Assembly: GCA_965208125.1 (NCBI GenBank)
Contig: OZ242320.1
Span: 1,248,001-1,312,000, forward strand
Length of the DNA stretch: 64,000 bases
Source of the DNA: Candidatus Latescibacterota bacterium
GTDB taxonomy: Bacteria; Latescibacterota; UBA2968
Reading direction: 5' to 3'
Below are positions 2,293-13,621 of this stretch, piece after piece. Each line of letters begins with the position of its first letter. Position 1 is the first letter of the stretch. The position numbers were made by a program, and so were the translations under genes. The notes beneath the pieces are model-generated. The model was not told the origin of the DNA. It was given only the letters and a program-made list of their open reading frames with translations, and did no database searches.

Positions 2293-2988
2293 CTATTTCC
2301 CGATAGGCAAGCCGATACCAACCTGAAGGGCAATAGACCGGTTCTTAACATCATCATTTTCTACTTTGCTAAACGATTGGACCCCCAAAGTGTACAGCAA
2401 TTCGACTAAGAATGTCATCCCTTCGGAAATCGCTATCTCAGTACCGATCCCTCCAGTAATGCCCAAGTCCACCGTCCTGGTCTTGACGAAGTCCCCACAA
2501 TCCACTGGTTTCCCTGTTGTTGACCCATCTGTACCCACGATTCCGCACTTGACATTGAACGCCACCGCCGGTCCAGCGAGCACATATATGGAAGTTGGGC
2601 CTCCGGGTGGGACGAGCGAGGCGATACCCAGGCCTGAAAATTCGATATAATCAAGGTTTGCACTGCCACTTAAATTATCAATGCCAAAAAAGTCCAAAAA
2701 GCCGTCTTCGACAACATCGGCTTGCCACCCTTTCTGCACATAGTTACCACTGAGTTGAAGGGCGAATCTATCCTGTATTGTGATAGTTGCAGAAGTACCG
2801 ACTTTGATGCCTGTACGCGCGCCCATGTCCAAGCCTTCTAGGGACGCGTCATCTCCGCCTATGGTCGCTCGACTCAAGCCTCCCCGAATAGCGATTGTTG
2901 TCTGCCCAAAAACAGGGATAGGATCGTGCAGGGCCGCCAAGGCTATTACACCCATGATAACGATGTAATGAAATGATAAGTGTTTCAT
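2293..2988 (-). CDS. Outer-membrane beta-barrel (porin/PorT-like family) protein
   Basis: AGGTGAGG RBS before ATG 2988. Signal-like N-terminus, alternating amphipathic strands (YVQKG, LDYIEF, KNRSIALQVGIGLPI). The ORF-track extension to 3204 runs through a non-coding repeat. Confidence 0.75.
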   Translation of the reverse strand: MKHLSFHYIVIMGVIALAALHDPIPVFGQTTIAIRGGLSRATIGGDDASLEGLDMGARTGIKVGTSATITIQDRFALQLSGNYVQKGWQADVVEDGFLDFFGIDNLSGSANLDYIEFSGLGIASLVPPGGPTSIYVLAGPAVAFNVKCGIVGTDGSTTGKPVDCGDFVKTRTVDLGITGGIGTEIAISEGMTFLVELLYTLGVQSFSKVENDDVKNRSIALQVGIGLPIGK

Positions 2989-3051
2989 ATCTATATACCT
3001 CACCTGTAAAAAAGATGATGCCAAAATGGTCTCTGATTGGTAGAATCGAAA

Positions 3052-3212
3052 AAAATGTAACTTGATGTTGTGGTTGTGGAACTTTACATTTTGATACAGA
3101 GCGGGTTGCGGTTTGCAAGACCGTTTCCTCTCTGTATGTTGCGGCAGAAGGCCACAGGCAGCCAAACCGAGCGGCCTTCTGCCATTCCCGCAGACATCAT
3201 ACATGTTTGCGG
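3052..3212 (-). ncRNA. Element II copy 1: three-hairpin structured leader/intergenic RNA of unknown family
   Basis: Near-identical to 4039-4200 and 12352-12513. Stems ccgcaaaca/tgtctgcgg, ggcagaaggcc/ggccttctgcc, atacagag/ctctgtat. Confidence 0.65.
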
Positions 3213-3241
3213 TACAGATCTCTCTTTTTTCTTTCTACCTT

Positions 3242-3736
3242 CTATTCTGCCTTCTTTATCTTCTCTATTTTGATCTGTACGGGTTGTGTTGAAATAAATT
3301 TCACCGATGCATCGCCAGAAGGGACAATTTTAACGGGTATATCGACAGCACCTGTTTGTTGGCTCGTAAGAGTAACGCTGATTCTCTCTGGGTATAAATC
3401 ATATAATGATCCTGCCATGTAATCTACCATGAGACCCACACCGGACCCGAGAAGATCAAGAAGGACAACTCCAATGTCCACTTTTTTTCTGATTCTCACC
3501 TGACGTGTCTCGTATCCTTCTTTTGAAATTGTAACATTATAATTCTGATTACGTTCCAATTCTGCTTCTGCTGGTGTGGTATATGTCTCGCCTTCTATAT
3601 CAACGGTGCTTCCTGGTGGTGTCGATCTAATGCTAATAAGTTGAGTAGAGCCATTAAGAATCAATCCACATCCAGAAAAAGAAAACAAAGAGAAAGTACA
3701 CAGCAATGCTAATGATACGGACAGGCAATTTTTCAT
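3242..3736 (-). CDS. PEGA-domain lipoprotein
   Basis: Lipobox FSG-C; PEGA-like STPPGSTVDIEG...TTP...VTISKEGYE; AAGGAAGGA RBS. Confidence 0.8.
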   Translation of the reverse strand: MKNCLSVSLALLCTFSLFSFSGCGLILNGSTQLISIRSTPPGSTVDIEGETYTTPAEAELERNQNYNVTISKEGYETRQVRIRKKVDIGVVLLDLLGSGVGLMVDYMAGSLYDLYPERISVTLTSQQTGAVDIPVKIVPSGDASVKFISTQPVQIKIEKIKKAE

Positions 3737-4038
3737 AACAACAATCCTTCCTTTTCTTAAAGGTCAAATACGTAACTAAATGTGAGTGATGTCTCATTGA
3801 TGGCGACTATAATCTATCACCCACATCAAATTCTTTTTTTGCACAAAACTAACACCGCGAAATTCTAAACTCAATGAGACGACATGCTTTCTGATCTTAT
3901 CCTCCTTTCAAAAGCAAATATTACTGATAGATTGAATTACCCTGCTCCGCATCTAGGTTAATACTTCTCGCCTAGTAACAGATCGGGCACAGACATAAGT
4001 TTTAAGCCTTCTCCTCCTTTCTCGTTGCATCAAACGGG

Positions 4039-4200
4039 AAAATGCAACTTGCTTTTGTGATAGTGGCACTTTACATTGTGAACAGAGCGGGTTGCGGTTT
4101 GCAGAACCGTTTCCCCCTCTGTATGTTGCGGCAGAAGGCCACAGGCAGCCAAACCGAGCGGCCTTCTGCCATTCCCGCAGACATAATTACCTGTTTGCGG
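4039..4200 (-). ncRNA. Element II copy 2
   Basis: Same three stems. Similarity to copy 3 extends to an RBS (gaaaggagg, ~4013-4021). Confidence 0.65.
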
Positions 4201-4261
4201 TTTTTTTTATAATAAGCGTTCAGCAGTCAGCAAAACAAGCTATTCGCTGATTTTCAGCAAT

Positions 4262-4299
4262 AAAAAAACCGCGTGTCCAGAACCAGATGACACGCGGTT
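4262..4299 (-). terminator. Intrinsic terminator between element I and element II
   Basis: aaccgcgtgtc-loop-gacacgcgg followed by a T7 run on the minus strand. Confidence 0.8.
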
Positions 4300-4320
4300 G
4301 ATTATTGTGCTATAAATAAT

Positions 4321-4496
4321 ACCGAATGCCATATCACCTATGGCATCCGGTTGCATTATAGAGCCGGTCAAATGCCACAGGCTGTTAGACTCTATCTATA
4401 GCCCAGATTGAGCTCGGCCCTTTCGGAAACCGAAACCATAGCATTTAACCGGCTGGAAGTTGCACAGTATATCCGGCCCCTCCAGCCGGTGCTATA
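4321..4496 (-). ncRNA. Element I copy A: candidate riboswitch/attenuator or sRNA
   Basis: Homologous to 12581-12770. Long helix ccggttaaatgctatgg/ctgtggcatttgaccgg encloses two hairpins. 3' hairpin accggatgccata/tatggcattcggt. Confidence 0.65.
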
Positions 4497-4515
4497 AATA
4501 AAGCCTAACGGCCTT

Positions 4516-4544
4516 ATATTACAACATAAAAGAATCGTTTGCAA
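4516..4544 (-). promoter_or_regulatory. sigma70-like promoter upstream of element I copy A
   Basis: TTGCAA-17 nt-TAATAT, about 20 nt upstream of the element. Confidence 0.55.
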
Positions 4545-4768
4545 GAAGAAATTGCTCATAAAATTTGCTGGCGCAGTCTGGTATAAAGCGGGCCAATCCA
4601 TAGATTGTACACCCCGCTTCAGTGTGGGGCAGGACCCAAAGTAAGACCACAATGTACATACACTCACAGGTACAGAGAGGTTTCAAATTTATTCATGCTG
4701 AGTCACCGAACAACACCAGTATCGCGTGATAAAGGAGCGTGGATTTGCGTTTTAACGCGAAGCAACAG

Positions 4769-4820
4769 CACAAAAAGAGAACGCCCCAGCATCGTTGTGC
4801 CGGGGCGTTCTCTTTTTGTG
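4769..4820. terminator. Bidirectional intrinsic terminator (related to the hairpin at 5741-5772)
   Basis: 19-bp perfect inverted repeat cacaaaaagagaacgcccc...ggggcgttctctttttgtg. Confidence 0.8.
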
Positions 4821-4910
4821 TATCAGGTAAACCAAAAAACGATTGTAAAAAAAGGCTTTTTCCAGACCCGTTCTCCGACCAGTTGCACCATTGCGCCTGT
4901 TCGTAACAAC

Positions 4911-5630
4911 TCAATGTACCAATTTGATGCCCCATTCAACACACCGCGTTTCGACTTCATCAAGCGGTGCCATGGTCACGATCACGCCATCGACTGTTTT
5001 ATCGGGGTGCAAAGTCCGCATCAACCCCACTTTATCGGCAAAGCGATCCACATCTTCCACCTCGCAAACAGACTTCACTTCAAACACCAGTAAAGTGCTG
5101 TTATAGACCAGAATATCGACTTCGTAGCGGCGCCCTGAAGGTCCAATCATGCCATCCTCATCTTCAAGAGGCTGTCGCAAACGCACATTTTCAGATACAA
5201 TATCGTCTCGCCCAAGAACCAATCTCATCGTGCCAGCAACAACATCCTCGAGTTTTCTGCCAGACCGCGTTTGGAAGCGTCCCACGATCATCTCAACCCA
5301 ATCTCTCAGATCGGAAAAACGCTGATCCATCTGGTCAAACCGTTCATCAACTTTCTCAAATCGCTCATCAACTTTCTCAAATCGCTCATCAACTTTCTCA
5401 AACCGTTCATTGACTTCCGACTGAAATGTATCCATGCCTGACCGAAATGTATCAAACTCGCCACGAAAATCGCGCAATTCAGAAAGGATTGCTGCGACTT
5501 CTTCCTTAGTAGCAAAAGTCCGCATAAAAGCCGTATAGACGCGCCGTTCCATCTCTGGATGGCGTGCAAGCAAAGCCGGCAACTGCTTCTCAAGCGTCTC
5601 TAATAATTCTTCATCTGTCAACAAGGCCAT
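4911..5630 (-). CDS. Coiled-coil + PD-(D/E)XK-fold protein (DUF3782-like)
   Basis: Heptad repeats ERFEKVD x3; C-terminal YEVDILV...FEVKS nuclease-fold motif; GAGG RBS. Confidence 0.75.
   Translation of the reverse strand: MALLTDEELLETLEKQLPALLARHPEMERRVYTAFMRTFATKEEVAAILSELRDFRGEFDTFRSGMDTFQSEVNERFEKVDERFEKVDERFEKVDERFDQMDQRFSDLRDWVEMIVGRFQTRSGRKLEDVVAGTMRLVLGRDDIVSENVRLRQPLEDEDGMIGPSGRRYEVDILVYNSTLLVFEVKSVCEVEDVDRFADKVGLMRTLHPDKTVDGVIVTMAPLDEVETRCVEWGIKLVH
5345..5407. repeat. 21-bp tandem repeat x3 encoding a coiled-coil heptad
   Basis: tcatcaactttctcaaa(t/c)cg(c/t) repeated. Confidence 0.85.
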
Positions 5631-5740
5631 CTCTCATTCCTCATTAGAATTTCCATAACGCAAGGCCAACTGTTCCAATGACCTTTATCAGATCAAAAGT
5701 AGCCGATTTCTATGGACCTGTCAACACTCCTCAATGAACT

Positions 5741-5772
5741 ACGCCCCAGCATCGAAATGCCGGGGCGTTCTT
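5741..5772 (-). terminator. Terminator-like hairpin downstream of the LRR gene
   Basis: acgccccagcat-cgaa-atgccggggcgt; no clear U-tract. Confidence 0.55.
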
Positions 5773-5884
5773 ATGTGTCAGGTAAACTCATCCTGAATTC
5801 ATACTATTCGCCATAGGGATTTGAGTCAACGCCATCGTCCACCCAATCCGAAATCCAATATAGTCTCTGATCGCTCTGCGGTCA

Positions 5885-7897
5885 TCAAAACTGCACCGTA
5901 ACTCCTCTGCCTTGAAGGGCTGGAATATGCGTGTTGATTGATGCGTCACTCAGAGGATTATCCCGCACATCAACCCTGTCTCCACTACCCCATCCCGTAT
6001 TTGCTACCAATGGCGAAAGGTCCGTGATTGAGTTATTGCGAAGCCATAATGTTTCTATATTGGTCAAGTTAGACAGCGGCGAAATATCCACGATTGAGTT
6101 ATAGTTAAGAACCAGATATGTCAGATGGGTTAAATCTGACAGTGGTGACACATCCGAGATGGTGTTATTGTTAAGAATCAGACTTGTCAAACTGGTCAAA
6201 CCGGACAGCGGGGACACATCCGAGATGGTATTACTGTTAAGCACCAGACTTGTTAAACTGGTCAAACCGGACAGTCCAGATATGTCCGAGATGCTGTTGC
6301 TGTCAAGACGTAGCCTTGTCAGGCGGGTCAACTCTGACAGTGCTGACACGGCCGAAATGGAGTTGTTGTGAAGAGTCAGATACGTCAGACTGGTCAAGCC
6401 TGACAGTGGTGACACATCCGAGATGCTGTTGCTGGAAAGACTTAGACTGCTCAGACTGGTCAAGCCTGACAGTGGTGAAAGGTCTGTGATCGAGTTGTTG
6501 GAAAGCAATAGCCTTGTCAGAATGATTGCAAACTCCAGACCGGTCAAATCGCTAATGTTCGAGTTCGGTGCATCAAGGCGGGTTAGAGTTGACATATCGC
6601 TTCTGGTGATCGTCTCGCCGCTCGACTTATCCAAAGCGTCCTCAATGGCAACACGCAGATTCGTGTCTGGGATGCTCACAGGCGTTGGGTCGATAACGTT
6701 AAAAACCACCCTAACCCCTCTATCTTGAAGGGCTGGAATGTGTGTGTTGATTGATGTTGTACCCAGAGGATTATCCTTCACATTAACATCGTCACCACTG
6801 CCTAATCCCGTATTTGCCACCAATGGCGCGAGATCGGAGATAGAGTTGTTTTGAAGCCATAGAGTTTGCAGATTGGTCAAGCCTGACAGCGGTGTGAGGT
6901 CAGAAATTGAGTTGTTGATAAGAATCAGCCCTTGCAGATTGGTCAAGTTAGACAGCGGTGAAAGATCCGTAATTGAGTTGTTGACAAGCAACAGCCCTGT
7001 CAGATTGGTCGCAAACTCAAGCCCGGTCAAATCGCTAATATTCGCATTCACTGCGGCAAAGAGGGTTAAGGTTGCCATCTCATCTCTGGAAATCGGAGCA
7101 CCACTCGCCTTGTTCAGACTGTCCTCAACCACAGCGCGCAGATTCATATCTGGAATAGAAACCATCCCTTCATCGCCACCATCAGAAGGAGACACCGTTT
7201 GACCATATTTACCTATAAGAATCCTCAAATCGCCCGCTGCAATCACCCCATCCCTATCCAGATCGTATTTCGCAACATCATCAGCTCGCCGAGACCCATA
7301 CACGCTGATCAGAAGCAGAAGGTCGGATTTACCGACAACACCATCCCCATCAAAATCGGGGGAAGGTGCGACATTAAACCTGATCACCTCTGTTGTTGTA
7401 ATAACATCCTCCACAGGCCTCGCGTTCGTATCTCCAGCAAGCACAATCCTCTTAATGCCAATAGAAAACTCTCGCCCCGTTACATCCACTGCGGTAGTAA
7501 ACTCTGCCCGTGCTAAAAAACCAGACTCAGACAAAGTCGCAGGTGAACTTGCTAATGTTCCCAAGACTGTACCAGTCGCTTCATTTTGAAGTGTAATCAG
7601 AGATGCACTGCTCCTGGCTCCGACATAGGCCAAAACAGACGCATCAAAATCAAATTCAATTCGTACACCAAGCAACGGCGTGGTCACACCTTTTGCGAAA
7701 ACTTCAACCGCGATTTTTGTCCCCTGTCCAGACACTCTACCTGAAGTAACGCCATCATCTCTCTCATTACCTGCCCCTCCATCGGCAATCAAATCAAGCG
7801 ACAAAACCGCATTCGCATTGGGACCAGCAGTCGTTTCTCCTGTACATATCAACAACCCAAAAAGGGTAAAAAACAATAATCCTTTTCTCAAAAACAT
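5885..7897 (-). CDS. Secreted cohesin-like + dockerin-like + internalin-type LRR protein (two capped LRR blocks)
   Basis: Signal peptide; N-domain similar to that of the 2251 gene; DFDGDGVVGKSDL / DLDRDGVIAAGDL; many 22-aa LxxLxLxxNxIxDxSPLSGL repeats; GGAGAGGAG RBS. Confidence 0.9.
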   Translation of the reverse strand: MFLRKGLLFFTLFGLLICTGETTAGPNANAVLSLDLIADGGAGNERDDGVTSGRVSGQGTKIAVEVFAKGVTTPLLGVRIEFDFDASVLAYVGARSSASLITLQNEATGTVLGTLASSPATLSESGFLARAEFTTAVDVTGREFSIGIKRIVLAGDTNARPVEDVITTTEVIRFNVAPSPDFDGDGVVGKSDLLLLISVYGSRRADDVAKYDLDRDGVIAAGDLRILIGKYGQTVSPSDGGDEGMVSIPDMNLRAVVEDSLNKASGAPISRDEMATLTLFAAVNANISDLTGLEFATNLTGLLLVNNSITDLSPLSNLTNLQGLILINNSISDLTPLSGLTNLQTLWLQNNSISDLAPLVANTGLGSGDDVNVKDNPLGTTSINTHIPALQDRGVRVVFNVIDPTPVSIPDTNLRVAIEDALDKSSGETITRSDMSTLTRLDAPNSNISDLTGLEFAIILTRLLLSNNSITDLSPLSGLTSLSSLSLSSNSISDVSPLSGLTSLTYLTLHNNSISAVSALSELTRLTRLRLDSNSISDISGLSGLTSLTSLVLNSNTISDVSPLSGLTSLTSLILNNNTISDVSPLSDLTHLTYLVLNYNSIVDISPLSNLTNIETLWLRNNSITDLSPLVANTGWGSGDRVDVRDNPLSDASINTHIPALQGRGVTVQF

Positions 7898-7989
7898 TTA
7901 CAACTCTCCTCTCCTATGTAGTGATGTGGTTTACGCAGAACCTGCACCCGTTCTGCTTCTTGCCCTTTCGGGATCCGAACGCCATATAG

Positions 7990-8005
7990 TGCAAAAAGCG
8001 TGCCA
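7990..8005 (-). promoter_or_regulatory. sigma54 (RpoN) -24/-12 promoter
   Basis: TGGCAC-GCTTT-TTGCA exactly fits TGGCAC-N5-TTGCW, ~90 nt upstream of ATG 7897. Confidence 0.7.
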
Positions 8006-8050
8006 ATATGAGCGTTGTTATAGATCTATATTCGTAAAGCGTTGTTTTAC

Positions 8051-8168
8051 AAAAAGAAAAAGAGCCAATCTAACTATATTATATCGTCGCAGAATAGTCG
8101 GATTGGCTCTTACACAAGACCCTATATCGTCTTAAAAGACGTAATAGGGTCTCAATAGTCCCGAGACC
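8051..8168 (-). ncRNA. Short structured RNA ending in an intrinsic terminator
   Basis: Overlapping hairpins ggtctc/gagacc and gaccctat/atagggtc, then aagagccaatc..actat/atagt..gattggctctt + tttctttttg. TTGCAA at 8198-8203. Confidence 0.5.
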
Positions 8169-8341
8169 ACAGTACATTCTTCATTATCATTTTTCGTTTG
8201 CAAGTGTGAGATGCAATGTATGAATTAGTTTTTTCCCATATCATAAGGTTCTCTATGACCAAACCACTTGATCCCACAGGCATCTAATGGCCGAGCGCAG
8301 GCTTGCATTTTGCGGTGTGTATATGTATCTTTGCACGCGAC

Positions 8342-8457
8342 AAAAACCTTCTGGATCGCGGCTCGACAGCACGCCCGATGACAGGCAAAAACCTCTGGAT
8401 TGCGGCTCGAAACCATGCCGCGATGACAGACGGGACGGCACAGGGGCCGTCCCCTAC
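8342..8457. repeat. Cluster of palindromic repeats: two CTGGA...TGAC units and one GTAG-type REP
   Basis: ctggat(c/t)gcggctcga...gatgac x2 (also at 19801); gggacggcacaggggccgtcccctac at 8432-8457. Confidence 0.75.
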
Positions 8458-8500
8458 AACACCATACCGCAATGACAACTAAAACCAAAGGAAAAAAATA

Positions 8501-9697
8501 ATGTTTGAAACACTGACAATGGCACCTGCGGATCCCATTATAGGATTGACCGAAGCATTCAAAAATGACCCAAACCCCGACAAAATAAACCTCGGCGTTG
8601 GCGTGTACAAAGACGGCGACGGCAACACGCCGATATTTGCCTCTGTAAAAACAGCGGAAGAACGCCTTTTAACACACGAAGACACCAAAAATTATCTCGG
8701 CATAGAAGGCGACGAAGCGTATAACAAAGCCGTCCAAGAACTCCTCTGGGGAACAGATCACGAAATACTCACCAGTGGTCGCGCCGGAACAGCCCAGGCA
8801 CCGGGCGGTACTGGCGCATTGCGCATTGCCGGCGACTTTATTCATCAGCACTATCCCCATGCCCGCGTATGGCTGAGCGATCCCACCTGGGCAAACCACC
8901 CCAAAATTTTTGAATCTGCTGGCGTACCCACAGAAACCTACCGCTATTACAACCCCGCGTCTTTTGGCCTAGACTTTGACGCACTTATCCAGGACCTCGG
9001 GCAAATCCCCGCAGGCGATGTCGTCTTGCTACACGGATGTTGCCACAACCCCACCGGCGTCGATCCCTCCGCCGAACAATGGGCGCAAATAGCCGATATC
9101 ATCGCAGATCGCGGCATCATCCCACTCGTAGATTTTGCCTATCAGGGCCTGGGCAACGGCCTCGTCGAAGACGCAGTCGGACTCCTATCTCTCAGCCGGC
9201 CCGGCTGCGAACTCCTCGTCGCCAGTTCCTTCTCCAAAAACTTTGGCCTCTACCGCGAGCGCACGGGCGCATTGACCCTCGTCGGAAAAGACGCCACCGC
9301 CGTTGAAAAAGCGATGAGCCACATCAAAATCTGCATCCGCACAAATTATTCCAACCCGCCATCGCACGGCGCCCAGGCAGTCGCAACGGTTCTCAACGAC
9401 CCCGACTTGCGGGCACAATGGGACGGCGAAGTAAAAGCCATGCGCGACCGCATCAACAACATGCGCACCCTATTTGTGGATACCCTCGAAACAAAAGGCG
9501 TGCGGCGCGACTTTTCGTTTATCGCACACCAGAGGGGAATGTTCTCTTTCTCCGGATTGACTCCCGAGCAAGTAGAAGCATTGCGCGAGAAATTTTCAAT
9601 ATACATCGTCAATTCGGGACGGATTAACGTGGCGGGCATGACAAAGGACAACATCGGGCCATTGTGCGAAGCGATAGCGGAAGTGATGGACGAATAG
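8501..9697 (+). CDS. aspC: Aspartate/aromatic amino acid aminotransferase (AspC/TyrB family)
   Basis: DKINLGVGVYKD, HGCCHNPTG, SFSKNFGLY(K-PLP)RER, QRGMFSFSGL, SGRINVAG. Confidence 0.95.
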   Translation: MFETLTMAPADPIIGLTEAFKNDPNPDKINLGVGVYKDGDGNTPIFASVKTAEERLLTHEDTKNYLGIEGDEAYNKAVQELLWGTDHEILTSGRAGTAQAPGGTGALRIAGDFIHQHYPHARVWLSDPTWANHPKIFESAGVPTETYRYYNPASFGLDFDALIQDLGQIPAGDVVLLHGCCHNPTGVDPSAEQWAQIADIIADRGIIPLVDFAYQGLGNGLVEDAVGLLSLSRPGCELLVASSFSKNFGLYRERTGALTLVGKDATAVEKAMSHIKICIRTNYSNPPSHGAQAVATVLNDPDLRAQWDGEVKAMRDRINNMRTLFVDTLETKGVRRDFSFIAHQRGMFSFSGLTPEQVEALREKFSIYIVNSGRINVAGMTKDNIGPLCEAIAEVMDE

Positions 9698-9850
9698 ACG
9701 GAGCGGTAACTGGTCGTTTCTCAGGCCAGTTCATCAACGGAGCGGGGTAACGCCAGACTGTACCATCGCTGTTGAGCGATGAAGGTTATACGACGGCGTG
9801 TGTGGGCAATTTAATCCTGTAAAGCGTGCAAAAAATTTCCCTTTTCAGTA

Positions 9851-12313
9851 CTATTGGTTCACAATAATCTGGTTGTGTTCGTTGTCACCAATGACCTCCC
9901 ACGGGGTTGGCGCATCCACTGTGCCTATGATGTTAATCAGCACCTTGCCAGAGGTTTTTACCCGGATTCCGACAGTATTCGCGCGAATAAAACCCGTGAC
10001 AATAATCGTGATGTCGCCAGTCTCACTCTCGGCACTGATGCCGATTCCGTGGCGGTTGCTGGCGATAATGGTGCCGTCGATGACAATCTCTATATCGCCG
10101 CTACCCGCCGGGCGCGAGGGGTCGTAGAGTACATTTTTACTTTCGGCTAAAATCCCGATAGCTCTGGGACCAGACACGACGATATCACCGCTGTTGTCGA
10201 TGACGATATCACCAGCTGAATACACGCGGGTTTCCCCGTCAACGGTGATGTCCCTGCCATACGCTTGGGCATATATCCCGTGAGAGCGGGCTCGGCTCGT
10301 CTCAATGCGACCCGAGTTGGCGATTTCGATCTTGCCGCCGAGGCCGTGATGTGCCCTCAGCCCGCTTGCATCCTCTCCGCGTGTTGTGATCTGACCGGTA
10401 TTCGCCGCGTAGGTCAGCCGAGTTTCTCCGATGGGATCAGGGGGCAACAATCTGAATTTTTCTCGGCTGCGCTGGTCGAGAAGATCGTGGAACGGCGTGA
10501 TATCAAACCCAGGAATCCAGAAGGCGAAAGCCAAAAGGCCCGAAGACCTCAAGCCAGTAGTTGAAACAGTTCCTTCATTGATGCCATAAGCTTGACCAGA
10601 CCTCTTCGCTGCGACCGCAATTCCAGGGCTGCGGCGCCCCGTTGTCTCGATGATGCCGGTGCGGTAGTTTCGCGCGTATGCAGCACCTGCGGCATTGGTT
10701 TTCGGCCGCGTTATGATTTCCTCTTGTATGTGGTGGCAACCCTCATTGTCAAAATAGGCAGCACAGGTCTCGGAATGAATACCATCGCTGAGTCTTCCCC
10801 TTGTCGTTACGCTGCCGGTATTATGCGTCTGCGTTGTGCCCCACAAGGTCTGCGCTGCCACTCCGCGGCTACTAACGCCCTCTACATCGATGGTTCCGTA
10901 GTTGATTGAGCGGGCAAGCTGGCCGCCGGTCTCGACGAATAGGCCATCTTGTCGGCCTTCGTCCCCAGTGATGAGAATACTGCCGCTCGACAGGTTGATG
11001 GACTCGGCAACATGTGTGTCGTCGTGTGGTGCGGCACTCTTGTGGATTTGGCTCGCGATGCCCCGTAGCGTTTTATCCGTCGAGTTATCGATTGTTACCG
11101 TACCGTAATTAGCTGTGTATACATTTCCACTGCCGCGCGAATATGTCCGCAGTCCTATACCCCATTCGAGTATTTGGATCATGCCCTTATTGACCAGCAT
11201 TAAATCGTCGGTATTTCCATACGTTATAATATTTATAGCAAACGCATTGGTCGCGTTGATCCCCGCTGTTTCTGTGAATGTGGCCGCGTATGCCTGCTTT
11301 TTTTCGTCTGAACTGTTGATGAAATTGAGGGCTGAGGTACCGGAGGGAACAGTGATCGTGCCTGCATCGTAATAGACATGGGTGGCGATGTCGGGATCAG
11401 AGGCTGTCGCTGGATTTAGCGGCGTTACCCTGTCGCCTTCGTAGCTATCGGTTATTGGGAGGGTAATTGTGTAATCCCTTACCGGGTATGGCGAAAAAGC
11501 TGGAGAAGGGTTGGACAGCGTGAGATGATCAAAGCGTACATTAACCCCTCTCTCAGATAGGGCGGGAATGTGCGTATTGAGCGACATGGCACTCAGCGGA
11601 TTATTATTCAGTAAAACCCAGTCGTCCTTGTCCAATCCCGTATTAGCTACCAATGGCGCGATATCCGAGATTGTATTGCCACGAAGATATAGATGTGTCA
11701 GGCCGGTCAGGTTGGCAACTGGCGCAATATCCGAGATCGCATTGCCATCGAGATTCAGCCATCTCAGGCTGGTCAACTCATCTATCGGTGCGATGGTAGA
11801 TATGTCGTTGCTGTTTACTTTTCGCCCCTCTATCCAATCATAGCCAAAATTTAGCCGTGTCAGATTCGTTGCATACTCGAGACCTGTCAAATTGCGAATG
11901 GCTTTGTTAGGTGCGTCAAGGCGCGTCAATTTTGACATATCGTCCGGGGTAATAGGTGCATCGCTTGTTTTGCCGAGAATTTTGGCAATGACCGCACGCA
12001 GGTTCTCATCTGGAATGTCAACAGTCGTTGTGCCGCCACTGCCTGACGGCGGAAATGTCTTGCCCCAATTGGAAATAAGGAGCCTTAAGTCCAATTCATC
12101 AACGATCTTATCACTTTTCAGATCAAACTTCGCATCCCAATTTGGTCCACCTGCTCGCGTTCCCCAATTGGAAATAAGGAGCCTTAAGTCCAATTCATCA
12201 ACGATCCCATCGTCGTTAAAGTCAGGAGAAGGCGTAGGGGTCTGAGATGCAAGAGACAGCGGATAGGCCAACACACATAAACAAATCATCAAAAACGCAA
12301 CACGAAACTTCAT
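9851..12313 (-). CDS. Secreted dockerin-like + LRR + beta-helix/autotransporter-passenger-like protein
   Basis: GGGAGG RBS and signal peptide MKFRVAF...LASQ; DFNDDGIVDELDL duplicated; capped LRR block; NxGxIxTxG..S.GI repeats; no beta-barrel seen. Confidence 0.8.
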   Translation of the reverse strand: MKFRVAFLMICLCVLAYPLSLASQTPTPSPDFNDDGIVDELDLRLLISNWGTRAGGPNWDAKFDLKSDKIVDELDLRLLISNWGKTFPPSGSGGTTTVDIPDENLRAVIAKILGKTSDAPITPDDMSKLTRLDAPNKAIRNLTGLEYATNLTRLNFGYDWIEGRKVNSNDISTIAPIDELTSLRWLNLDGNAISDIAPVANLTGLTHLYLRGNTISDIAPLVANTGLDKDDWVLLNNNPLSAMSLNTHIPALSERGVNVRFDHLTLSNPSPAFSPYPVRDYTITLPITDSYEGDRVTPLNPATASDPDIATHVYYDAGTITVPSGTSALNFINSSDEKKQAYAATFTETAGINATNAFAINIITYGNTDDLMLVNKGMIQILEWGIGLRTYSRGSGNVYTANYGTVTIDNSTDKTLRGIASQIHKSAAPHDDTHVAESINLSSGSILITGDEGRQDGLFVETGGQLARSINYGTIDVEGVSSRGVAAQTLWGTTQTHNTGSVTTRGRLSDGIHSETCAAYFDNEGCHHIQEEIITRPKTNAAGAAYARNYRTGIIETTGRRSPGIAVAAKRSGQAYGINEGTVSTTGLRSSGLLAFAFWIPGFDITPFHDLLDQRSREKFRLLPPDPIGETRLTYAANTGQITTRGEDASGLRAHHGLGGKIEIANSGRIETSRARSHGIYAQAYGRDITVDGETRVYSAGDIVIDNSGDIVVSGPRAIGILAESKNVLYDPSRPAGSGDIEIVIDGTIIASNRHGIGISAESETGDITIIVTGFIRANTVGIRVKTSGKVLINIIGTVDAPTPWEVIGDNEHNQIIVNQ

Positions 12314-12351
12314 GATCGCCCCTCCCTTTCTCGTCGCATTCCTCAACCGGA

Positions 12352-12513
12352 AAAATGCAACTTGATTTTGTGGTGGTGGAACTTTACATTGTGCATAGAG
12401 CGGGTTGCGGTTTGCAAGACCGTTCCCCTCTCTGTATGTTGCGGCAGAAGGCCACAGGTGGCCAAACCGAGCGGCCTTCTGTCATTCCCGCAAACATAAC
12501 ACACGTTTGCAGG
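12352..12513 (-). ncRNA. Element II copy 3
   Basis: Same architecture; first stem altered but still paired (cctgcaaacgt/atgtttgcggg). Confidence 0.65.
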
Positions 12514-12580
12514 TTTTTATTTACGACAATCGTTCTGTCAGGACTTTCTCATCTTCTCGATTTACAGTCTGGAATCAGAC

Positions 12581-12770
12581 AAAAAAACACCGAATGCCAT
12601 ATCACCTATGACATCCGGTTTCTCTATTGAATATGCCGATTAAATGCCACAGGCTACCTTCTTAATCTATAGCCTAGATTAAGTTCGGTTCCTTTAGTCC
12701 CCGAAGCCATAGCATTTAACCGGCTGGAAGTTGCACAGTATATCCGGCTCCCTCCAGCCGGTAGGCTATA
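12581..12770 (-). ncRNA. Element I copy B, ending in an intrinsic terminator
   Basis: Homologous to 4321-4496; hairpin accggatgtcata/tatggcattcggt followed by g and T7. Confidence 0.7.
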
Positions 12771-12786
12771 TTTAAGAAGGCACCTT

Positions 12787-12814
12787 ATGATAAACATTAA
12801 TAAACTTTACGCAA
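12787..12814 (-). promoter_or_regulatory. sigma70-like promoter upstream of element I copy B
   Basis: TTGCGT-16 nt-TATCAT, followed by aagg as in copy A. Confidence 0.5.
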
Positions 12815-12847
12815 TAAAAAACGCATAAGCCTTTCCAAGGAGAAATC

Positions 12848-13621
12848 ATGACACTCAAAGACCGCGTGGCAATCGTCACTGGCGCAAGCTCTGGCATAGG
12901 GCGGGGCATAGCACTGGCACTGGCACGGGAAGGCGCGTGTGTAGCCGTGGCCGATATACAGGAAGCACCCAAACAGGGCATATATCACGACACCGACTTA
13001 ACCACTTCTACGGTAGAGGAAATAGAAAAACGCGGTAGAAAAGGAATCTTTGTACAGACCGACGTATCGGATGACGAAGCGGTACGCAACCTGATCGAAC
13101 GGACAGTCTCCGAATTTGGCAAACTGGACATCCTGGTAAACAACGCCGGCATCACAATACCCGGCGGCATTGAAGAAACAACCATCGCCGACTACGACAC
13201 CGTAATGGGCGTAAACCTCCGGGCACTATATGTAGCCAGCAAACTCGCCATGCCACACCTGAAAAAACCCTCCGGCAGAATCATCCACATCGCATCTGTA
13301 CAATCATTTGGCGGGGGTGGTGGACCTGCGTATGCCGCATCAAAAGCCGGCGTCGTCAACCTCACGCGAGACACCGCCCTGGAACTGGCCCCCTTTGGCG
13401 CAACCGTCAATGCAATATGCCCGGGCTACATCGAAACGCCCATACAGGACTATCTCACACCGCAGGACATTGAAGACTGCCGGGTAAAAACCCCCCTGCC
13501 GCGCCTGGGCTTGCCATCGGACATCGGCAACGCCGCGGTATTCTTCGCATCAGACGCCGCCGCCTGGATCACTGGCACAGCCCTACCTGTAGATGGCGGA
13601 TGGATGGCGTCTATTTTTTAA
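12848..13621 (+). CDS. Short-chain dehydrogenase/reductase (SDR)
   Basis: TGASSGIG, NNAG, YAASK motifs; AAGGAG RBS. Confidence 0.95.
   Translation: MTLKDRVAIVTGASSGIGRGIALALAREGACVAVADIQEAPKQGIYHDTDLTTSTVEEIEKRGRKGIFVQTDVSDDEAVRNLIERTVSEFGKLDILVNNAGITIPGGIEETTIADYDTVMGVNLRALYVASKLAMPHLKKPSGRIIHIASVQSFGGGGGPAYAASKAGVVNLTRDTALELAPFGATVNAICPGYIETPIQDYLTPQDIEDCRVKTPLPRLGLPSDIGNAAVFFASDAAAWITGTALPVDGGWMASIF

Follow-up and report, generated by a model that had tools for sequence, protein, structure and literature searches.

The 64,000-nucleotide (nt) stretch analysed here (the window; positions 1,248,001 to 1,312,000 of contig OZ242320.1 in assembly GCA_965208125.1, Candidatus Latescibacterota bacterium) carries two diverged copies of a sequence of about 180 nt, Element I, and raises the question of whether this is a leader RNA that decides if transcription proceeds into the genes behind it. 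A preceding inspection by a model, confined to the letters and their open reading frames (ORFs) and called here the sequence-only reading, had placed the copies on the minus strand at 4321–4496 (copy A) and 12581–12770 (copy B), each behind a sigma70-like promoter. It had described a long helix (P1) enclosing two hairpins (P2 and P3), an alternative helix that breaks P1 (P0), and a terminator whose 5′ arm can instead pair with the freed 3′ arm of P1 as an antiterminator. We verified both locations; the copies are 81% identical over 183 nt and are the sole two significant matches in the 5.75-Mb single-contig genome. Comparison with homologues indicates that Element I is a real structured leader RNA with two exclusive folds, found in one order of Latescibacterota, and we judge it probable that it acts in cis as a new attenuator or riboswitch-like conditional terminator that would respond to a putative effector. 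Within the earlier proposal of an orphan riboswitch or attenuator, the logic of anti-antiterminator, antiterminator and terminator holds in cis across 22 homologues; the fold had to be revised, with a long-range helix at the 5′ end, T:X, emerging as the dominant and best covarying element.

Folded within the limits first given, copies A and B have z-scores of −6.5 and −7.4, equalled by none of 200 shuffles, and the minimum free energy (MFE) of the sense strand is −71.0 kcal/mol versus −52.8 kcal/mol for the antisense strand. The true 5′ end of the RNA appears to lie about 18 nt further upstream than the sequence-only reading had it, at approximately 4514 and 12786, directly after the −10 box. 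The promoter hexamers are present, and similar ones occupy the same relative place in those homologues whose upstream sequence was inspected, but they fall below the threshold of a consensus scanner: the copy A site, a consensus match only, scores 8/12 against a threshold of 9/12, and the copy B site drew no call. The choice of start matters for T:X, which had first been seen as a 6-nt pseudoknot (tatagc:gctata) because folds starting at 4500 and 12775 cut off the 5′ end. That pairing exists, but it is merely the tip of a helix of 19–26 base pairs (bp) and belongs to the antiterminating state, not to the state in which P1 forms.

In T:X the first 19–26 nt of the presumed transcript (T) pair with a segment (X) that comprises P3 from the 3′ half of its loop through its 3′ arm, followed by the junction and by the GCCU with which the P1 3′ arm opens. 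Since the 22-copy MAFFT alignment (A5) on which the counts for fold A, P0 and the antiterminator are based has T and X out of register, T:X was assessed by per-sequence duplex energies and by an alignment fitted to R2, a model of the read-through fold (fold B) seeded from seven in-register copies. The copy A duplex has an energy of −27.3 kcal/mol that none of 200 shuffles reached, and across 23 copies only 0–3 of 200 shuffles reached each observed value. Cognate duplexes average −21.4 kcal/mol, versus −11.8 kcal/mol when T is paired with the X of other copies. In the R2-fitted alignment, which leans towards the structure, all 23 of 23 T:X pairs are compensatory, with 130 compensated cells versus 36 in shuffles and a covariation score of 0.399 versus 0.05–0.09 for slid controls; the duplex-energy test is free of this lean. 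Mismatch appositions within T:X are more often G:U (51) than A:C (23), which, together with the better fold of the sense strand, argues that T:X is an RNA feature of the minus strand.

T itself has no conserved sequence. Next to it stands P0 (accggctggag/cttccagccggt; ACCGGCUGGAAG/CUUCCAGCCGGU), which is 88.5% paired over 22 sequences with four compensatory pairs, and T:X, P0 and P2 together form the three-way junction of fold B. The unpaired strands of this junction, UAAAUGCUAUGG and GCUCAAUCUGG, are nearly invariant and are the most conserved bases of the element, while the helices around them vary and covary. A covarying structured domain with nearly invariant unpaired junction bases is what a riboswitch would present.

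The alternative, fold A, comprises P1, P2, P3 and the terminator. On A5 94.5% of its cells are paired and 11 pairs are compensatory, a result that none of 500 shuffles reached and that compares with 28–44% pairing in slid controls. Across the 22 copies P1 is 98.9% paired with three compensatory pairs, P2 is 97–98% paired, likewise with three, and the terminator helix is 92% paired, again with three. P3 is the weakest helix at 83%, its central pair (columns 118–132) being broken in 15 of 19 sequences. Its 5′ arm nevertheless retains its sequence in copies whose X has diverged in concert with T, and is therefore constrained by more than pairing to X. A further indication comes from one homologue (G016_a) in which all three GCCGG/CCGGC strands, namely the P0 5′ arm, the shared middle strand and the P1 3′ arm, are altered jointly (columns 29–76 and 76–160); this concerted change argues that P0 and P1 are both under selection. 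P1, P2, P3, P0, terminator and antiterminator, all named in the sequence-only reading, are thus present in both window copies and maintained in 22 homologues. The inner end of P1 (UAUGG/CCUGUG) bears what we take to be a resemblance to the 11-nt GAAA-tetraloop receptor, with a geometry towards the adjacent P2 that looks unfavourable.

The two folds would be read out through four paralogous strands, the P1 5′ arm resembling the terminator 5′ arm and the P1 3′ arm resembling the terminator 3′ arm. The antiterminator (cctgtggcat/atgccatagg) joins the P1 3′ arm to the terminator 5′ arm; it is 97.7% paired over eight pairs in 22 copies although six of the eight vary on one side. The terminator has the GC-rich hairpin and U tract of an intrinsic terminator, and its alternative pairing excludes the sensor helix, as in attenuators generally; among the 22 aligned copies it is lost once, to an ISL3 insertion (G021_a). 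The T7 tract of copy B and the second terminator of copy A were both found where the sequence-only reading had them. Copy A is one of nine copies with a second, paralogous terminator, and in all nine the 3′ arm of terminator 1 can pair with the 5′ arm of terminator 2 (−10.4 to −19.1 kcal/mol, reached by 0–6 of 300 shuffles; −13.1 kcal/mol in copy A, reached by none of 300), so that the decision could pass on to the second terminator.

Several lines of analysis bear on how far the folds exclude one another and which of them prevails. T:X uses nucleotides that P3 needs for its entire 3′ arm and P1 for its inner 4 bp, and the 12-bp P0 occupies 6 nt at the outer end of the P1 5′ arm. Coexistence of full T:X and full P1 as a pseudoknot would be sterically implausible because, along the RNA, T comes before the P1 5′ arm and X after it, X running straight into the P1 3′ arm without a spacer. 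The helices, their mutual exclusivity and their orientation to the genes (see below) are established by comparison of the copies. When the sensor is folded with its full 5′ end, the MFE structure is fold B in 19 of 22 copies, and blocking T costs 5–15 kcal/mol, the best structure then being fold A in most copies. Nascent RNA ending at the terminator 5′ arm has T:X together with an antiterminator of at least 8 bp as its MFE structure in 19 of 21 copies (in one of the two failures the terminator arm had been misplaced by the script), and the most distant homologue, G052, behaves in the same way, with the antiterminator in its MFE structure. When T is blocked, 12 of the 21 copies form a P1 of at least 12 bp. 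These folding energies ignore tertiary structure and kinetics.

The wide margin by which fold B is the computed ground state would also suit a constitutive, unregulated 5′ leader, in which the 35–44-bp T:X–P0 duplex has a role in processing or stability (as an RNase III site or as a protector of the 5′ end, for example) and the terminator attenuates a strong promoter at a fixed rate; from what is generally known of RNase III, the length of the duplex suits double-strand-specific nucleases. Such a leader would, however, leave three things unexplained: the conservation of P1, with compensatory changes shared with P0; the lasting ability of the P1 3′ arm to pair with the terminator 5′ arm; and the near invariance of the junction strands. 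We regard it as distinctly unlikely.

For a conditional terminator the following mechanism may be envisaged. The transcript would start a few bases past the sigma70-like promoter, and the two exclusive folds would decide whether it stops at the intrinsic terminator before the gene. In fold B, T would pair with X, P0 would take the outer 6 nt of the P1 5′ arm and P2 would complete the three-way junction; with P1 blocked, the P1 3′ arm and the terminator 5′ arm would form the antiterminator and RNA polymerase would read on. In fold A, T would remain unpaired, P3 and the 20-bp P1 would form and sequester the P1 3′ arm, and the terminator hairpin would end transcription. Where a second terminator follows, as in nine copies, the free 3′ arm of terminator 1 could pair with the 5′ arm of terminator 2 and so relay the decision. 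Because fold B is the computed ground state and T is unconserved, the regulated step is most likely recognition of the conserved core formed by the P1 5′ arm (a), P2 and P3; because the energies favour fold B, the effector most likely favours fold A, with the gene off. A small molecule or protein acting on the a–P2–P3 core co-transcriptionally could achieve this by favouring P3 and P1 before T invades P3 through the toehold in its loop. That the choice between the folds is regulated, that it has an effector of this kind and that it runs in this direction is the most likely account under this model.

The homologues that underlie this analysis were collected by BLAST and then with R1, a sensor covariance model made from 18 copies, which recovers about 25 full-length copies at 77–157 bits versus 12–20 bits for the antisense of the same places. 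Element I is present in 12 of 20 genomes of the same genus, one of two of the sister genus and one of 22 of a neighbouring family of the same order (G052, 88.9 bits); it is found in none of 40 genomes of a third family searched with normal filters. A phylum-wide sample of 151 genomes yielded nothing further under stricter filters that missed the G052 copy, so absence from other families is weakly supported. An exact degenerate pattern run against one genome per prokaryote species returned 22 stretches, 20 of them titled Latescibacteria or Latescibacterota; the other two, a 1-kb contig of a Poribacteria-titled metagenome-assembled genome and one uncultured bacterium, both score above 130 bits with R1. 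A scan of metagenomes with the same pattern gave three stretches, of which one is a true copy and two (L096 and L097) fail to match the model. No match to any of the 4227 models of Rfam 15 reaches the gathering score anywhere in the window, and at E ≤ 1 over 3600–13000 the only hits are sub-threshold, chance-level ones that touch the terminators, none overlapping the sensor, in agreement with the failure of the sequence-only reading to place Element I in a known family. The homologue collection, covariance model and table of downstream genes that it had suggested revealed covariation and a non-random position relative to genes.

The G052 copy (L122, 1440–1668, minus strand) is the most distant of these. 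It has a 26-bp T:X of entirely different sequence, an 18-bp P0 (z = −10.6) and a 15-bp terminator, and it retains P0, P1, P2, P3, antiterminator and terminator. A ribosome-binding site and ATG follow about 25 nt past the terminator, and the product of this gene has a signal-peptide-like start and, by eye, a dockerin-like DLDGDG...F motif, with no Pfam hit.

Genomes that have Element I carry one to four copies before different genes, and some copies are decayed: two have P3 cut by an inserted NucS_C-like gene plus a DDE transposase (L102 and L118; G002 and G015), one is truncated at the 5′ end, one is without its middle and one has a stem of about 125 nt inserted between P3 and P1. At the G020 locus (L099, 2663–5836) the terminator is separated from the block that follows it by a Mutator-family gene and a DDE transposase. 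Multiple copies per genome, some next to transposases, and the inverted repeats formed by T and X are features that would also be seen in a repeat that is mobile or works at the DNA level (a miniature inverted-repeat element or a recombination site, for example) and folds by chance. Against such an origin stand the strand asymmetry (100–157 versus 12–20 bits, G:U versus A:C at 51:23, −71 versus −53 kcal/mol), the fixed place after a promoter-like site and before a co-directional gene, the presence of only two copies in the 5.7-Mb genome and the fact that transposases interrupt or follow copies and do not flank them; we consider it highly improbable.

Taking as the downstream gene the ORF that covers most of the interval from +60 to +1000, we find that the first downstream ORF is co-directional with Element I in 21 of 23 copies. 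In one exception (G021_a) two ISL3 transposases come right after the sensor, and in the other (G009_a) an opposite-strand ORF of 191 amino acids (aa) without a Pfam hit overlaps a diverged form of the downstream block described below. At the G021 locus (L115, 1727–4431) the two ISL3 transposase genes are identical and stand in place of the terminator region. The sequence-only reading had placed secreted dockerin-protein genes behind both copies. That is true of copy B, but copy A precedes a PEGA-domain lipoprotein and an outer-membrane beta-barrel protein. Among the homologues the products include ankyrin-repeat proteins (the first ORF in three copies, a later ORF in two), Dockerin_1 proteins with leucine-rich repeats (LRRs; copy B) or with CARDB, a second beta-barrel protein besides that of copy A, a 1273-aa cadherin/fn3/Big_9 protein, and WD40/PKD, FGE-sulfatase, LDL-receptor-repeat and Bor-lipoprotein products, with nine lacking a Pfam hit. 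A signal-peptide-like or lipoprotein-like start is seen by eye in 14 of 22 first ORFs. At the G016 locus (L109, 1973–3296) the FGE-sulfatase is split into adjacent ORFs of 249 and 177 aa, the one matching the first half of the Pfam model and the other the second, through either a frameshift, a pseudogene or a sequencing error.

In most copies a second conserved sequence, block 2, intervenes before the gene. The sequence-only reading had not mentioned it; homology between the copy A and copy B loci extends past the terminator into about 200 nt that are roughly 90% identical. Block 2 lies between terminator and gene in 15 of 23 copies (14 by BLAST, plus G009_a by eye), and there are at least eight copies in the genome and 25 distinct ones in the fetched loci. 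Its core of about 97 nt consists of an 11-bp stem (GGCAGAAGGCC/GGCCUUCUGCC), then GCAACAUA, then a CAGAG...CUCUG stem enclosing a CGGU/ACCG hairpin; RNAalifold predicts 20 pairs, five of them with compensatory changes, and there is no Rfam hit in the window at the gathering score or at E ≤ 1. The pair table gives no clear excess of G:U over A:C that would point to one strand as the functional one. Block 2 begins (4175–4200 on the plus strand; about 12495–12520) with an A tract and then a hairpin, retained in most copies that have both Element I and block 2, which on the opposite strand read as a canonical intrinsic terminator, CCGCAGAC...GUUUGCGG followed by U8; it might serve to end antisense transcripts, or be a sign that block 2 is itself a gene for an antisense RNA. 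The motif GCCUGUGGC, common to Element I and block 2, was treated as chance because it is lost in diverged block-2 copies.

Block 2 is one of several features that weigh against a regulated leader acting in cis. It fills a gap of 200–600 nt between terminator and start codon in most copies, it is found in places that lack Element I too, at least one of these solitary copies following a promoter-like site, and weak A-rich promoter-like sequences precede it in both window copies, so that the genes might have their own promoter; between the copy B terminator and the start codon the consensus scanner, which covers sigma70 only, found no site. The tandem strong terminators fit a stand-alone RNA gene as well. 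Fold B is far more stable than fold A (5–15 kcal/mol), and the formation of fold A is predicted from the covariation of P1 (three compensated pairs) and the logic of the arrangement. The downstream gene set points to no metabolite, and the closing helix of 19–26 bp contrasts with the ligand-gated P1 of a few base pairs in terminating riboswitches. The compensatory counts for T:X come from a structure-fitted alignment, and the homologues, all from one order and mutually related, are a thin sample.

Some of these features would be expected of an independent gene for a small RNA of about 200 nt that acts in trans or binds a protein, the surface genes being merely linked to it. Like small RNAs that end at Rho-independent terminators, Element I has its own conserved promoter-like site, a length of about 200 nt, a terminal hairpin with a U tract (strong, and in nine copies in tandem) and a conserved unpaired stretch, CCUGUGGCAUUUGACCGGC, which is single-stranded in fold B between the closed 5′ domain and the terminator hairpin and might be a seed. 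In full-length MFE structures the terminator forms even in fold B in most copies, and both the long gap to the start codon and the independent occurrence of block 2, which can follow its own promoter-like site, are readily accommodated. A plain small RNA, however, would have no need of an antiterminator that remains 97.7% paired while six of its eight pairs vary, nor would it be expected to keep a fixed place and orientation before genes. Co-directionality in 21 of 23 copies argues against it, as do the presence of one to four copies per genome before different genes and the decay or splitting of copies by insertion sequences together with their loci. So do the copies in G052, G001_a and G016_c, in which the start codon directly follows the terminator, some tens of nucleotides away, without block 2. 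We therefore hold a small RNA gene to be unlikely, and continue to favour the cis-acting conditional terminator.

Known leader classes provide further points of comparison. A leader-peptide attenuator was rejected: only 10 of 23 copies combine an open form of the one recurring frame, of 23 codons, with a Shine-Dalgarno-like site; copy A has no such peptide, copy B has a different one of six codons, and the region carries non-triplet indels. There is no Rfam T-box match, and the downstream genes are not aminoacyl-tRNA or amino-acid genes, which tells against a T-box leader; neither the c-di-GMP-I nor the c-di-GMP-II (cyclic di-GMP) riboswitch gives a covariance-model match. To terminating riboswitches such as SAM-I, purine and c-di-GMP, Element I is similar in having a promoter-proximal conserved domain, a terminator 5′ arm with an alternative partner in the sensor, helices that covary around conserved junction bases, and several copies before functionally related genes. 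It differs in the number of layers, four (T:X/P0, P1, antiterminator and terminator) and sometimes a second terminator, and in having genes that imply no ligand. The same logic is found in four-strand attenuators (1:2/2:3/3:4 in trp, as well as those of PyrR and TRAP), with a:a′ and the terminator pairing leading to termination in Element I and pairing of a′ with the terminator 5′ arm to read-through; paralogous arms are shared with trp-type attenuators, but Element I has no conserved leader peptide and the strand that prevents the 1:2 pairing is its own 5′ end. The extreme 5′ end of the nascent RNA also takes part in the deciding pairing in pyrG antitermination in Bacillus subtilis, where a short poly-G extension pairs with the terminator; in Element I a templated 5′ segment of 19–26 nt pairs internally, two layers before the terminator. 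New in Element I, as far as the sequences indicate, would be that a templated 5′-terminal helix of 19–26 bp heads the relay, that the relay extends to a second terminator, and that the regulon consists of secreted, surface and eukaryote-like repeat proteins.

To our knowledge nothing is known of gene regulation in Latescibacterota, a phylum without cultured members, and our literature search found no paper on regulatory RNA in this phylum or before genes for eukaryote-like proteins. Genes for adhesins, for large surface proteins rich in repeats and for secreted proteins often stand behind second-messenger riboswitches, and the likeness of Element I to the c-di-GMP-I and -II (GEMM) riboswitches is one of regulon only; sequence and fold do not match. 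It is possible, if speculative, that Element I represents a new riboswitch class, whose aptamer, the three-way junction of fold B or that of fold A, responds to a second messenger or to a small molecule from host or environment and, through a relay of four to five helix layers, switches a set of genes for secreted and surface proteins and for eukaryote-like repeat proteins (ankyrin, LRR/dockerin, cadherin/fn3 and WD40). If true, this would be a first handle on the control of presumed host-interaction genes in an uncultured candidate phylum. A common leader RNA would define a regulon, and an object of about 200 nt lends itself to transcription and probing in vitro, with no need to grow the organism; with each layer supported by covariation, Element I would be a clean natural example of a multi-state RNA switch. 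A study of sponge-associated Latescibacterota describes ANK (ankyrin), LRR, WD40 and FN3 proteins in these bacteria and states that eukaryote-like proteins carry domains important for symbiosis (PMC12993501).

Table 1. Features of the two Element I loci in the window (positions of the window; minus-strand features are given with the lower position first)
Feature	Positions	Strand	Remarks
Copy A promoter-like site	4516–4544	−	−35 TTGCAA 4544–4539, 17-nt spacer, −10 TAATAT 4521–4516
Copy A T arm	4491–4514	−	In the MFE structure 4509–4491 pairs with 4384–4402 and 4514–4511 with 4379–4382
Copy A P0 5′ arm	4479–4490	−	ACCGGCUGGAGG
Copy A P0 3′ arm	4448–4459	−	CUUCCAGCCGGU; overlaps outer end of P1 5′ arm
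Copy A P1 5′ arm (a)	4434–4453	−	GCCGGUUAAAUGCUAUGGUU; nearly invariant in the family
Copy A P2 hairpin	4414–4433	−	GAAA tetraloop, 2-nt bulge
Copy A P3 5′ arm	4405–4412	−	CUCAAUCU; sequence conserved, partner variable
Copy A X	4379–4402	−	3′ arm of T:X; also alternative partner of P3 5′ arm
Copy A P1 3′ arm (a′)	4363–4383	−	Pairs with a (P1) or with terminator 5′ arm (antiterminator)
Copy A terminator 1	4311–4351	−	Stem 4351–4321, 13 pairs; degenerate weak U tract AUUAUUUAUA
Copy A terminator 2	4262–4299	−	Paralogue of terminator 1; U7 tract
Copy A block 2	3990–4215	−	Core 4173–4077
Copy A first gene	3242–3736	−	164-aa PEGA-domain protein, lipoprotein-like N-terminus
Block 2, third window copy	3052–3213	−	Between two genes of one operon
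ORF after copy A first gene	2293–3204	−	Outer-membrane beta-barrel
Next ORF	884–2293	−	469 aa
Copy B promoter-like site	12787–12814	−	TTGCGT 12814–12809, 16-nt spacer, TATCAT 12792–12787
Copy B T arm	12763–12786	−	
Copy B P0 hairpin	12719–12762	−	5′ arm 12762–12751, 3′ arm 12730–12719
Copy B P1 5′ arm	12705–12724	−	
Copy B P2 hairpin	12685–12704	−	GG/AA variant replaces bulge
Copy B P3 5′ arm and X	12651–12683	−	P3 5′ arm 12683–12676, X 12676–12651
Copy B P1 3′ arm	12635–12655	−	Also antiterminator 5′ arm
Copy B terminator	12581–12619	−	Stem 12619–12589, U7 tract
Copy B block 2	12325–12521	−	Reaches ribosome-binding site of gene
Copy B gene	9851–12313	−	Signal peptide, Dockerin_1, leucine-rich repeats; ATG probably 12313, listed ORF start 12346

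Two further observations concern the surroundings of the window copies. Proteins of 670 and 831 aa that combine Dockerin_1 with LRRs are encoded beside the outer-membrane beta-barrel and PEGA proteins (2293–3736 and 5885–12346), the same genome thus encoding dockerin modules and outer-membrane beta-barrel proteins. A perfect long palindromic hairpin at 4763–4830, between an upstream 239-aa ORF (4911–5630) and the copy A promoter, has an A tract and a T tract on its flanks and draws only weak chance Rfam hits (mir-154 and SpF25); it looks like a bidirectional terminator, which would insulate Element I from upstream transcription.

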